Notes under the pieces: model-generated
Told to the model about the DNA's origin: nothing
Databases searched by the model: none
Seen by the model: only the letters and a program-made list of their open reading frames with translations
Program-made: the position numbers and the translations under genes
UHGV virus genome: UHGV-0213571
Length of the DNA stretch: 39,653 nt
Direction: 5' to 3' (one strand)
Source: a virus
Shown here: piece by piece, positions 31,338 through 39,473 of the stretch
How positions within the stretch are numbered: the stretch's first letter is position 1
How the letters are laid out: every line of letters begins with the position of its first letter

Positions 31338-31769
31338 CTACTCACCTCCGTTGATGCGAATGCCAGCGGCACGGGAATCATTCCATCGCTTTACTTCTTC
31401 ACGAATTACGTCAATGCATTCTTTCGAATCCATTAGGTAATCTTCATCAAAAAGCCTTTCCTGTTCGTTTTCTATCGCAACAATGATTGCTTCAACTAAC
31501 TTTTGTGCCTGAGAACCACTTTCTAACTCTGCAATGCGCTTCTCTGCGGCTTCCAGCGCATTTACCAGATCATCAACGGTTCCAGCCGCTTGGCGTGCGT
31601 AATCTGTAATTGCCAGCTCGCATTCAATTTCAGTTCCGTTTTCGTTGGTGTGGCAAATAGCAAAGTAATCGGAGTCGATTTCGTTATCAGCCAAACTCCT
31701 AAGCGTGTCGGCAACCAGCACTCCGTTTTCAATCAGCATCTCTGTTGCGCGTTTGTCGATGTTGCTCAT
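31338..31769 (-). CDS. Hypothetical acidic protein (Ead/Ea22-like module)
   Basis: 143 aa; shares LEAAEKRIAELE coiled-coil motif and a 20-bp identical stretch with the next gene. Confidence 0.55.
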   Translation of the reverse strand: MSNIDKRATEMLIENGVLVADTLRSLADNEIDSDYFAICHTNENGTEIECELAITDYARQAAGTVDDLVNALEAAEKRIAELESGSQAQKLVEAIIVAIENEQERLFDEDYLMDSKECIDVIREEVKRWNDSRAAGIRINGGE

Positions 31770-36521: not shown

Positions 36522-36992
36522 CTAATAAAACACCCAGTTTTCTGTTTCTTGGTTGTGTCCAAAGTTATATTCAATATCTGGTGTTGATGTATCAATATTC
36601 TTCATCCCATCAACAAGAGTTGATACAACAGCCAAATCTTGTTTGATTCTCATTAAATGGTATTTCTTCCGGCGCAATAAACTTTCAATGGCAAGTTTCT
36701 TCGTTGGGAATGCAAAAGATCTTTCTGCATTTTTTGCTACTTTCTTAATTGCATATCTATTTCTCTTTTGTTTCCATTCCTGTAACCACTGATTTGGTGC
36801 TGGTTTAAAATTAACAATCCAATGCGCAGGAACCAACCATGCATAATGCTCTGTCTGATGAAAAGCTATATATTGAAGTGCGAATATTTTGATTCCATCT
36901 TCTTCAACTGTCGCCTGGAATCTCCAGAAAACAGGCATTCCATCATGTTCAGTTTCTGATTCAGGAAAAGGTACGCTCCATGATTTTGTCAT
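36522..36992 (-). CDS. Hypothetical protein, AT-rich moron between N and cIII
   Basis: 156-aa ORF, visibly lower GC than neighbours, followed by 9-bp-stem hairpin (36480-36507) and the terminator. Confidence 0.5.
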   Translation of the reverse strand: MTKSWSVPFPESETEHDGMPVFWRFQATVEEDGIKIFALQYIAFHQTEHYAWLVPAHWIVNFKPAPNQWLQEWKQKRNRYAIKKVAKNAERSFAFPTKKLAIESLLRRKKYHLMRIKQDLAVVSTLVDGMKNIDTSTPDIEYNFGHNQETENWVFY

Positions 36993-37000
36993 ATCTCACC

Positions 37001-37300
37001 TCAAATAAGTGGTTTGCTGCCTAATTTCATTTTCTGGCGACCAACACAAGTCACACCCATTTCACTGCGTGGCTTGCGGTAGTAAATACGGTTCTGTTTA
37101 CACTCGACTTCTTCTGCCTTCTTGCAGCGAAGGCTTCCGAGTGACGCTGCTTTGTCTGCTCTGACGCAACCAGAGAGCTTTAGCGCAATCTTTCGCGCCA
37201 GTCTCTGTTCTTTCATTGCCTGTTCACGTTGAGCCTGTCTTCGTGCTCTGCGGCGATTTCTGGCGTTATCGTCAGCCAGATATGTAATGACTACTGTCAT
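37001..37300 (-). CDS. N: Antitermination protein N (arginine-rich motif type)
   Basis: N-terminal arginine-rich motif (NARNRRRARRQAQREQ) directly downstream of nutL boxA/boxB; first gene of pL operon. Confidence 0.65.
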   Translation of the reverse strand: MTVVITYLADDNARNRRRARRQAQREQAMKEQRLARKIALKLSGCVRADKAASLGSLRCKKAEEVECKQNRIYYRKPRSEMGVTCVGRQKMKLGSKPLI

Positions 37301-37406
37301 GTTGACCTCCGATGATTGACTTTGGCGGTGACGCGCCGGGTGCTTATCTTCCGGTTGCCGTCGTGCAGCTGCACTTCACGTCACCCCAAAGCCAACTACT
37401 CTTTGG

Positions 37407-37448
37407 TTCCCGCATTTCGGCTGGACAATCCCATCAATGTTAAAGAGC
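37407..37448 (-). promoter_or_regulatory. nutL site: boxA (GCTCTTTAACA) and boxB hairpin (CCGAAATGCGGG core)
   Basis: Minus-strand sequence nearly identical to nutR copy at 39078-39122. Confidence 0.55.
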
Positions 37449-37496
37449 CTGCCAATCTGTTCCGTTTGGCTACCAGCGTCCTGCTGATGGCTAAAG

Positions 37497-37581
37497 AATA
37501 CTGTAGGTATTTTATTGTGTAAATACCCAAGGTATTTATTTTTGATGAAATAATGATAAACAAATGAATACAAAGGATATT
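37497..37581. promoter_or_regulatory. OL operator cluster with overlapping pL: three 15-bp sites of form AATAC-N5-GTATT (37497-37511, 37522-37536, 37567-37581, the last with ATATT half-site)
   Basis: Inverted-repeat half-sites seen directly; same motif recurs in OR. Confidence 0.55.
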
Positions 37582-37667
37582 TATTTTTTCGGTGTCTGCT
37601 TGTTCAGTGCTTTTTATGCGGGATATGTGAAGTGGATCCCGATAGCTATTGCTGCCGGGATTATGGG

Positions 37668-38057
37668 TTAGTCAGCGAAGGTTAAGACGAGAATTACCTT
37701 AATGATGTCTGCTACAACAGACACGGCCATAGATAAACCAAAGACGATCCAAGCCATAGAGATGTCTTCACTACCATCGTATAGAGTTCCGTAATCACTG
37801 GTGTAAGGCGTAAATGTCGCGCCTTGATACAATAGGTATAAGCTTGAACCATAGAGGATAAATGCAGATATCCCTTGTATTGCTATGATCACTAGAATCA
37901 TGAAACGAGCTGATCTATGCGCCCAAGCCTGGCTTATTTTTTCTGATAGAGATTTCGCAATAAAAGCATGCGCTAAGCCGTAAATTGTCGAGATTGCCAA
38001 CATCCCAAAAAAGCTTGCTATAGCGGTTCCAACCATAATCGCCCCTTGCGTGATCAA
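37668..38057 (-). CDS. Small polytopic membrane protein co-transcribed with cI (rex-position); candidate superinfection-exclusion / abortive-infection factor
   Basis: 129 aa with about 4 hydrophobic segments; ATGA start-stop overlap with cI. Confidence 0.55.
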   Translation of the reverse strand: MITQGAIMVGTAIASFFGMLAISTIYGLAHAFIAKSLSEKISQAWAHRSARFMILVIIAIQGISAFILYGSSLYLLYQGATFTPYTSDYGTLYDGSEDISMAWIVFGLSMAVSVVADIIKVILVLTFAD

Positions 38058-38770
38058 ACCAGCCTTAGTTTTGTCTCAATTGCAACGCCTATAATCTTGC
38101 AGTTTCCATTGATTGGCACGAGAGGCCATGCAGGATTAAGTCCCTTGAGGTATTTATTTCCGCCGTCGATTATCAGCTTCTTGAATGTTGCTTCGTTAGA
38201 GTCAGAAAGTTTTGCTATGACCAAGCTGCCGTTGATCGCCTCCCTTCCGGTATCGAAAAGAACGAATGTTCCCTCTGGAATGCTTAACCCAACCGGTGCC
38301 GTCATTGAATCACCTTCCACTTTAAGCCAAAACGCATTACCTTGAATATGCGCGTCAGACTCAAGCCAAACATCTATGTCTTTAATGGTGTATGGTTCGC
38401 ATGCTTCACACCACGAGCCAGCCTGGATACTGCTTAACACCGGATACCTCTTTCCTGCTCTGTATTCCCCTGCATACCTTACGTTGGCATCGCTCTTAAG
38501 GCTTTCTGCCTGTTCTGCAACCTTGGCAGCAATTGACTGGCTAAAATCAGCAATTGAGACTTGCAACAATCGTGCAAAACCAGATGCAACCTCAACGTTT
38601 AGCGCGTTTCTGCCATTAAGATAATGCCCTACCGCTCCTTGGGTGATACCCAGTTCATCAGCGATTGAGTATTGGGTTATTCCCAATTCTTTCTTTTTTG
38701 ACTCATACAAAGCCTTAAGCCGCTTAGCGTCTTCGAGCTGTTCTGTCGTCAGTGATTTTTTATTTTCCAT
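38054..38770 (-). CDS. cI: CI repressor (HTH + LexA-like S24 autopeptidase domain)
   Basis: 238 aa; N-terminus LTTEQLEDAKRLKALYESKKKELG and C-terminal FWLKVEGDSMTAP...TFKKLI closely parallel lambda CI; different recognition-helix region. Confidence 0.9.
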   Translation of the reverse strand: MENKKSLTTEQLEDAKRLKALYESKKKELGITQYSIADELGITQGAVGHYLNGRNALNVEVASGFARLLQVSIADFSQSIAAKVAEQAESLKSDANVRYAGEYRAGKRYPVLSSIQAGSWCEACEPYTIKDIDVWLESDAHIQGNAFWLKVEGDSMTAPVGLSIPEGTFVLFDTGREAINGSLVIAKLSDSNEATFKKLIIDGGNKYLKGLNPAWPLVPINGNCKIIGVAIETKLRLV

Positions 38771-38805
38771 AGCTTAATTCTAATAGCTAAGGTACTTAAA
38801 CTAAA

Positions 38806-38847
38806 AATACCCTGAGTATTGATTGCTTTGAATACCTGTAGTATTCT
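38806..38847. promoter_or_regulatory. OR operators (AATACCCTGAGTATT 38806-38820; AATACCTGTAGTATT 38831-38845) with candidate pR (-35 TTGATT 38819-38824, -10 TATTCT 38842-38847)
   Basis: Same AATAC-N5-GTATT motif as OL; located between divergent cI and cro. Confidence 0.55.
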
Positions 38848-38876
38848 TTGTTCATGGTTAATAACGGAGAGTGCAT

Positions 38877-39071
38877 ATGATTCGAATGACACTTGCCGAT
38901 TACGCCAAAATCCATGGACAGGCTAAAGCAGCCAGTGACTTTGGTGTAATCCAGTGCGCTATCAGCAAGGCCATTCTGGCAGGCCGTAACATCATGGTTA
39001 CGGTAAAGCCTGATGGCAGTGTGATTGGAGAGGAAGTTCGTCCTTTCCCAAGCAACAAGAAAAACAAATAG
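38877..39071 (+). CDS. cro: Cro repressor
   Basis: Product ...[58 protein letters not shown] parallels lambda Cro; GGAGA RBS. Confidence 0.8.
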
Positions 39072-39077
39072 TAACAC

Positions 39078-39122
39078 CGCTCTTTAACAGTCATGGTCCT
39101 CATTCCCGCCGAAATGCGGGAA
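39078..39122 (+). promoter_or_regulatory. nutR site: boxA CGCTCTTTAACA (39078-39089) and boxB hairpin TTCCCGC-CGAAAT-GCGGGAA (39103-39122)
   Basis: Perfect 7-bp stem boxB downstream of boxA-like sequence, immediately after cro. Confidence 0.6.
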
Positions 39123-39179
39123 TACAACGCGCATAAGTAGATGCGCATAACTTCTTATTTGTTAAGGAAATACTTACAT

Positions 39180-39473
39180 ATGGTTCGTGCAAACAAACGC
39201 AACGAGGCTCTAAGAATCGAGAGTGCGTTGCTTAACAAAATCGCAATGCTTGGAACTGAGAAGACAGCGGAAGCTGTGGGAGTTGATAAGTCGCAGATCA
39301 GCAGGTGGAAGAGGGATTGGATTCCAAAGTTCTCAATGCTGCTTGCTGTTCTTGAATGGGGCGTCGTCGACGACGATATGGCTCGATTGGCACGACAAGT
39401 TGCTTCGATTCTCACCAATAAAAAACGCCCGGAGGCAACCGAGCGTTCTGAACAAATCCAGATGGAATTCTGA
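39180..39473 (+). CDS. cII: CII transcriptional activator
   Basis: Product MVRANKRNEALRIESALLNKIAMLGTEKTAEAVGVDKSQISRWKRDWIPKF... near-identical to remembered lambda CII; AAGGA RBS. Confidence 0.85.
   Translation: MVRANKRNEALRIESALLNKIAMLGTEKTAEAVGVDKSQISRWKRDWIPKFSMLLAVLEWGVVDDDMARLARQVASILTNKKRPEATERSEQIQMEF

Follow-up and report, generated by a model that had tools for sequence, protein, structure and literature searches.

The region between N and cII in the virus genome UHGV-0213571 (39,653 bp; the window, meaning the whole stretch analysed) is very probably an immunity switch of the HK620 type, made up of CI, Cro and their operators, that governs lysis and lysogeny in a P22-like E. coli prophage or phage with a mosaic genome. 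The module is already known as the immunity region of phage HK620. What is added here is the conservation of its operators and of the CI helix across genera, a proposed correction to the position of the third left operator (OL3) and a variant base in the boxB of nutL. For the element itself, which the region marks as a mosaic P22-like prophage whose immunity is of the HK620 type, the result has little significance beyond correct annotation, the module being an ordinary one; the OL3 correction and the apparently private nutL change are small but testable points.

Gene content and relation to phage HK620

The genes lie in the order N, nutL/OL, hkaS, cI, a 106 bp intergenic region, cro, nutR and cII. 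The N antiterminator (99 residues; 37001-37300, minus strand) is an open reading frame that matches the N-like family phrog_271 (E = 3e-36) and carries an arginine-rich NARNRRRARRQAQRE. When compared with the N proteins of HK620, HF4s and lambda, its N-terminal arginine-rich motif matches HK620 N, with a C-terminal third of the type seen in lambda N. The open reading frame hkaS (122 residues; 37668-38036, minus strand; phrog_6534) has a ribosome-binding site and, from its hydropathy, three hydrophobic segments; a gap of 17 nt separates it from cI upstream, and it takes the place that rexAB has in lambda. Pfam and PADLOC searches with hkaS and with a 156-residue open reading frame gave nothing meaningful, and an Rfam scan of the whole window found nothing. 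Just past hkaS, within 37600-37670, there is a stable hairpin (-14.1 kcal/mol, z = -3.0) without a U-tract.

The cI repressor (238 residues; 38054-38770, minus strand) combines an N-terminal helix-turn-helix (HTH) domain (Pfam HTH_3, E = 8e-10) with a C-terminal S24 autocleavage domain (Peptidase_S24, E = 5e-24), and its best match among solved structures is lambda CI (E = 3e-52). An alignment with lambda CI brings three features into register, the cleavage site in QAG, the serine of GDSMTAP and the lysine of TFKKLI; the motifs QAG, DSMTAP and FKKL align with A111-G112, S149 and K192 of lambda. This combination of domains, Ala-Gly site and Ser/Lys dyad is that of a lambdoid repressor, and the site and dyad would be expected to support RecA-stimulated self-cleavage. 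On the plus strand, cro (64 residues; 38877-39071) belongs to the lambda-Cro fold family (PF09048, E = 4e-26, 91.3 bits, above the gathering score of 32.7; best structure matches to lambda Cro, E = 5e-19), and cII (97 residues; 39180-39473) matches Phage_CII in Pfam. A pRE CII site, TTGC-N6-TTGC, is present at the 5' end of cII on the opposite strand. With cI and cro diverging around OR3, OR2 and OR1, and with OL1, OL2 and OL3 between hkaS and nutL/N, the layout is that of a lambdoid CI/Cro switch.

A megablast search showed 37300-39182 to be 99.3% identical at the DNA level to phage HK620 (AF335538), with 237 of 238 residues of CI and all of Cro identical, as expected for a sequence of the HK620 immunity type. 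The AF335538 record already annotates OL1-3, OR1-3, pL, pR, nutL, nutR, hkaS, cI and cro, and inspection appears to have been the basis for its operator assignments. The two sequences agree in the six annotated operator positions, in the two promoters and in the two nut sites. The differences lie in cII, which is P22 c1-like in HK620 and of the lambda/434 type here; in the C-terminal third of N; in the nutL boxB, with G in HK620 and T here at 37422; and in OL3, placed here at 37566-37582 as opposed to the annotated 37543-37559. Since the HK620-like DNA ends at 39182 and the lambda/434-like cII DNA starts at 39163 (megablast query coordinates), there is a recombination joint at 39163-39182, in the cII ribosome-binding region. 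The remaining window is P22-like (Lederbergvirus-type) and mosaic, and no single database phage covers 80% of it. HK620 was published in 2001 (Clark, Inwood, Cloutier and Dhillon, J Mol Biol 311:657).

The operator consensus, which is unlike the textbook operators of lambda, 434 and P22, might be taken to signal an immunity specificity not described before. There is practically no chance of this, given the 99.3% identity to HK620, dating from 2001, and the operators already annotated in GenBank. HK630, HK140, mEpX2, HZ41, phi296/phi367 and two Stx2c phages match about as well as HK620, the match to HF4s extends through cII (98.8%), and 16 phage records contain the module, as do 146 of 5426 complete E. 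coli genomes. The mEpX2 immunity group is, moreover, already in experimental use: mEpX2, which carries the module at 99.3% identity and whose published cI qPCR primers find exact matches in the window (38213-38235 and 38288-38308), is reported to belong to an immunity group of its own, distinct from those of lambda, HK022, phi80 and others, and both double and triple lysogens of lambda and mEpX2 have been constructed (PMC3442831). The distinct immunity group on a lambda-type scaffold proposed in the first-pass annotation is supported by this separate grouping, as well as by the CI, Cro and CII families and the lambda geometry. HK620-type immunity predicts that a lysogen would resist HK620, HK630, HK140, mEpX2 and some Stx2c phages. 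A search of the literature found no binding, footprinting or genetic data on the HK620-type CI/operator pair, and no biochemical work on its CI or Cro.

Operators and promoters of the switch

The exact motif AATAC-N5-GTATT occurs four times in the window when both strands are searched: twice at OL (37497-37511 and 37522-37536) and twice at OR (38806-38820 and 38831-38845). Dinucleotide-preserving shuffles contained 0.03 exact sites on average, and none of 100 shuffles reached four. The motif might have proved frequent throughout the genome; instead, every exact copy in the window falls in OL or OR. Allowing up to two mismatches gave 22 matches against about 16 expected in the window, which is no enrichment, and this loose pattern was dropped as uninformative in favour of a scan with a half-site position matrix trained on the four exact sites only, in which every 17-mer (39,637 positions) was scored. 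The top held-out match, at rank 5 of 39,637 (score 11.0), was 37566-37582 (GAATACAAAGGATATTT, one core mismatch), followed at rank 6 (score 7.3) by 38781-38797 (TAATAGCTAAGGTACTT, two mismatches), the former in OL and the latter, OR3, in OR. The best background site, at 31426, scored 6.55 and OR3 is barely higher, so that support for OR3 comes mainly from its position and from its conservation in relatives. A repeat finder run without a prior pattern recovered the same operator family and showed that the 45 nt spanning OL1 and OL2 (37493-37537) recur in inverted orientation over OR2 and OR1 (38805-38849). The initial count of three sites in OL and at least two in OR is upheld, with two exact and one near-exact site in OL and two exact and one weak site in OR.

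The full operators are 17 bp long, with half-sites of the form (A/G)AATAC(C/T)N on either side of a central base pair. OL1 (GAATACTGTAGGTATTT; 37496-37512; matrix score 21.8) and OL2 (AAATACCCAAGGTATTT; 37521-37537) both have exact cores, as do OR2 (AAATACCCTGAGTATTG; 38805-38821) and OR1 (GAATACCTGTAGTATTC; 38830-38846), and all four are annotated in AF335538 and found by the matrix. The weak OR3 (38781-38797) is annotated there as well, and all three OR sites are kept in an alignment of four phages (see below). The centres of OL1 and OL2 are 25 bp apart, as are those of OR1 and OR2; from OR2 to OR3 the distance is 24 bp.

The promoter assignments are predictions at the level of homology and consensus. 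pL (37495-37523, minus strand; promoter scan and HK620 annotation) would consist of a -35 hexamer TTTACA (37523-37518), a 17-nt spacer and a -10 hexamer TATTCT (37500-37495), which overlap OL2 and OL1. pR (38819-38847, plus strand; HK620 annotation and sequence check) would have the hexamers TTGATT and TATTCT, again separated by 17 nt, the -35 overlapping OR2 and the -10 OR1; it agrees with the consensus at 8 of 12 positions, too few for the threshold of the promoter scan. pRM was not called by the promoter scan of the region either, and was read from the sequence by comparison with lambda pRM; it is predicted at 38777-38805 on the minus strand, with a weak -35 TTTAGT, a 17-nt spacer that encloses OR3 and a -10 TAGAAT. 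The cI strand reads TTTAGT-17-TAGAAT-TAAGCT-ATG, compared with TAGATA-17-TAGATT-TAACGT-ATG in lambda, and the 6 nt from the -10 to the cI ATG are identical in spacing. Such a sequence predicts a weak, activator-dependent pRM and, as in lambda, a leaderless cI mRNA. Operators that overlap both hexamers (-10 and -35) of pL and of pR, with OR2 next to the pRM -35, make up the arrangement of a lambdoid switch.

A tblastn search with Cro led to relatives in Hafnia phage Pocitis76 (86% identity), Serratia phage vB_SspS_OS31 (81%) and Erwinia phage vB_EhrS_49 (54%), whose records carry no annotated operators. At each of these loci, the top matrix matches are three sites between cI and cro and three upstream of N or nutL. 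In an alignment of OR from the four phages (E. coli, Hafnia, Serratia and Erwinia), 25 of the 30 core half-site columns are invariant, compared with 7 of 30 central and spacer columns (Fisher p = 6e-6).

It is very improbable that the palindromes are chance features of the intergenic regions or hairpin-forming transcription signals to which no protein binds. Intergenic regions are AT-rich, and the unenriched two-mismatch motif would fit a chance origin, but the four exact copies all lie over the -10 and -35 hexamers of the divergent early promoters, the half-site cores, unlike the variable centres and spacers, are conserved in all four genera, and the arrangement is homologous to the experimentally defined operators of lambda. 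The site statistics and the cross-genus conservation in effect refute a chance or hairpin origin.

Beyond the observed sites, their statistics and geometry, their homology and their conservation, we infer CI and Cro binding, cooperativity, activation of pRM, an order of site occupancy and a bistable switch. CI dimers would bind the 17 bp two-fold symmetric operators, for which the consensus is AAATACC-N3-GGTATTT with AATAC-N5-GTATT as its core. CI on OL1/OL2 and OR1/OR2, at 25 bp centre to centre, would occlude pL and pR, and CI bound at OR2 against the weak pRM -35 would be expected to activate the leaderless cI-hkaS transcript. The weak OR3 inside pRM may then let Cro, or high levels of CI, shut pRM off.

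The third left operator and the nut sites

We consider it likely that OL3 is mis-annotated in the HK620 family and that the real OL3 is the site at 37566-37582, centred 45 bp from OL2, a dyad that has been taken for the terminator tIMM (37556-37586 as annotated in AF335538). The annotated OL3 maps to 37543-37559 (TGATGAAATAATGATAA), is unlike the motif and ranks 16,467 of 39,637 by the operator matrix, on which ground it was ruled out as an operator; the best held-out match is 37566-37582. It is unlikely that the GenBank set for HK620 is correct as it stands, with OL3 at 37543-37559 and the palindrome at 37566-37582 acting as the tIMM terminator of the cI-hkaS transcript. That arrangement has the AF335538 annotation behind it, puts OL3 at 22 bp from OL2, near the lambda value of 20 bp, and gives the dyad a place at which a terminator is expected, downstream of hkaS. 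Against it stand the low matrix rank of the annotated OL3 and the fold of the annotated tIMM, which at -1.6 kcal/mol (z = +0.75) is less stable than the mean of shuffled sequences and is not credible as a terminator; a terminator scan found none at this position. In addition, the relatives have a good third OL site at a variable distance from OL2: +45 bp in Serratia, +29 bp in Hafnia and +21 bp in Erwinia. The spacer around OL3 is itself about 75% identical (by eye) between Serratia and the window, so that the Serratia comparison is not fully independent.

Since 45 bp does not correspond to an integral number of helical turns, the cooperativity between adjacent sites known from lambda cannot simply be assumed at OL3. 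If the proposed position is right, CI at 37566-37582 would occupy the 3' end of the cI-hkaS transcription unit that encodes it, where it might act as a roadblock, or OL3 might take part in long-range looping between OL and OR, with repression of pRM as the result. The geometry of such a loop (1.3 kb, with OL2-OL3 at 21-45 bp among the relatives) would be unlike that of lambda.

Both early promoters are followed by a boxA resembling CGCTCTTA and by a boxB, as expected for N/nut antitermination. The two sites are supported by HK620 annotation, alignment and folding. nutR (39078-39122, plus strand) has boxA CGCTCTTTAAC (39078-39088) and boxB TTCCCGC-CGAAAT-GCGGGAA (39103-39122), with a perfect 7 bp stem, and its 51-nt stretch folds at -12.6 kcal/mol. 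nutL (37407-37449, minus strand) has boxA GCTCTTTAAC (37439-37448) and boxB GTCCAGC-CGAAAT-GCGGGAA (37407-37426). The two sites had been described as sharing the same boxA and boxB; this is right for the boxA GCTCTTTAAC, present in both, and for the loop and 3' arm of boxB, but the 5' arm of the nutL boxB is GTCCAGC where that of nutR is TTCCCGC. The nutL stem contains one internal A.G mismatch, which stems from T at 37422; HK620 and HF4s have C at the mismatched boxB position (T versus G on the plus strand). In the closest prophage, that of E. coli NT1F10, this base (T versus G) is the sole difference across 37122-39316, and among 488 E. coli records with this nutL none is 100% identical to the copy in the window. 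Judging from these alignments, the base at 37422 is private to this copy and would weaken the boxB stem.

Operator specificity in relation to lambda and other genera

The module shares with lambda the order N-nutL-OL-(accessory gene)-cI-OR-cro-nutR-cII, operators of 17 bp centred on one base pair, overlap of O1 and O2 with the hexamers of pR and pL, an OR2 that adjoins the pRM -35 and a leaderless cI start. It differs in the half-site (AAATACC, compared with TATCACC in lambda), in the spacings of OR (25/24 bp; 24/23 bp in lambda) and of OL1-OL2 (25 bp; 24 bp in lambda), in the distance from OL2 to OL3 (45 bp; 20 bp in lambda) and in the small membrane-protein gene hkaS that replaces rexA-rexB, as a result of which OL and OR are 1.33 kb apart compared with 2.4 kb in lambda. 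Lambda and the HK620-type module are reported to be heteroimmune (PMC3442831).

Identity to lambda amounts to 102 of 231 residues (44%) for CI, 39 of 64 (61%) for Cro and 95 of 97 for CII. Within CI, the N-terminal domain is 52% and the C-terminal domain 39% identical; the HTH, with 13 of 26 residues, is the most diverged part of the N-terminal domain, the stretch of helix 1 that precedes it having 19 of 26 identical residues (our own count). The operator half-site differs from the lambda half-site TATCACCG at positions 1, 3, 4 and 8, with A2, A5, C6 and C7 in common. The first-pass annotation had described the operators as departing from the lambda consensus, CII as nearly identical to that of lambda, and CI and Cro as lambda-related proteins diverged in the HTH, and these figures agree on each point. 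Half-sites of the TATCACCGC type and the helix QSGVGALFN, which mark imm-lambda, are replaced here by AAATACC and QGAVGHYLN.

The changes in the operators may be related to those in the proteins. The CI recognition helix is QGAVGHY, compared with QSGVGAL in lambda, and that of Cro is QCAISK, compared with QSAINK. In the lambda repressor-operator complex, Gln44 reads A2, Ser45 reads the G opposite C4, and Asn55 together with Lys4 reads the G opposite C6. When CI is aligned with lambda CI, Gln33, Gln44, Asn55 and Lys3/4 are kept, while Ser45 is replaced by Gly, Gly46 by Ala and Ala49 by His, so the residues retained and changed in CI seem to match the base pairs retained and changed in the operator. 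The shift in specificity at positions 1, 3, 4 and 8 goes together with changes in the recognition helices of both CI and Cro, and A2, A5 and C6 are retained along with the residues paired with them. For Cro, an 'evolutionary code' pairs Gln-H1 with A2, Ala-H3 with A5 and Lys-H6 with C6 (PMC6649833), and all three of these Cordes pairings are present in the 17 bp frame.

The Erwinia, Hafnia and Serratia phages share with the window the core (T/A)AATAC-N5-GTATT(A/T), three OR and three OL sites and the same CI helix, together with a Cro that is 54-86% identical and has the recognition helix Q(C/T)AISK. They differ in their hosts, in their genome backbones, in the accessory gene between cI and OL and in the spacing of OL3 (+21, +29 and +45 bp). 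The CI helix TQGAVGHYLNGRNALN is found in all four phages (as SQGAV... in Hafnia), its general form being (T/S)QGAVGHYLNGRNALN. Hafnia CI combines an N-terminal domain that is 78% identical to that of the window with a lambda-like C-terminal domain that is 37% identical, and has the same operators; operator type hence follows the DNA-binding N-terminal domain. The cross-genus set provides a clean natural case in which operator specificity travels with the N-terminal domain of CI independently of the C-terminal domain, and the comparison agrees with the published Cro recognition code. Among more distant phages with a lambda-fold Cro, compared by eye, Fostie has a related operator type, TA(A/G)TAC, and TL-2011c and HK97 have lambda-like TATCACC operators.

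Mosaic joints flanking the immunity region

The immunity module of the window is nearly identical to that of phage HK620 (AF335538), and a mosaic joint lies at the cII ribosome-binding site (39163-39182). To the left of this joint the immunity region is of the HK620 type, while to its right cII is of the lambda/434 type (DNA identity 96.5-98.5%). This combination, which HK620 itself lacks, is shared with phage HF4s and with the closest prophage, that of E. coli NT1F10.

The N gene (37001-37300, minus strand) is also a hybrid. Residues 1-64 differ from HK620 N by two substitutions only and include the arginine-rich motif, which goes with the boxB of the window. In its C-terminal third (KQNRIYYRKPRSEMGVTCVGRQKMKLGSKPLI) the protein follows the lambda N type and is unlike HK620 N, placing a recombination joint within the gene. 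Just downstream in the pL operon, a 156-residue open reading frame (36522-36992, minus strand) matches phrog_1636, a family with no assigned function (E = 5e-112), and gave no Pfam domain; at this position HK620 carries hkaQ and hkaP instead, the latter encoding a putative superinfection-exclusion protein.

A base change in nutL

In the boxB of nutL, the N-utilization site on the pL transcript (37407-37426), plus-strand base 37422 is T, compared with G in HK620, HF4s and E. coli NT1F10, and introduces an A·G mismatch into the stem. This base is the sole difference between the window and the NT1F10 prophage over 2.2 kb (37122-39316), and among the 488 E. coli records carrying this nutL, no copy is 100% identical to that of the window. 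The T could represent a genuine mutation that weakens nutL or could be a sequencing error.

The hkaS slot

The position occupied by rexAB in lambda is held here by hkaS (37668-38036, minus strand), which starts 17 nt past the cI stop codon with its own ribosome-binding site (AAGGGG) and encodes 122 residues with three hydrophobic segments. Its only match was phrog_6534, again with no assigned function; no hit was found in Pfam or PADLOC. The corresponding genes of the Erwinia and Hafnia relatives (phages vB_EhrS_49 and Pocitis76) are unrelated to hkaS, so that the slot looks like an accessory (moron) position expressed in the lysogen. Directly 3' of the hkaS stop codon is a stable hairpin (37600-37670, minus strand; -14.1 kcal/mol, z = -3.0). 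Since it lacks a U-tract, it does not qualify as a canonical intrinsic terminator and might instead serve as a 3'-end stabilizer or processing site.

Proposed re-annotations in related phages

Two HK620 GenBank features that map to the leftward operator region (37543-37586) look wrong. The annotated 'OL3' (37543-37559) bears no resemblance to the operators, and the hairpin energy of 'tIMM' (37556-37586) is not meaningful; the true dyad in this interval is an operator-like site at 37566-37582. In Serratia phage OS31 (2392-2440), the annotation starts cI 16 codons too far upstream and takes the frame across OR3 and OR2; judging from the alignment to the three other phages, the real start is at MESKKSL.
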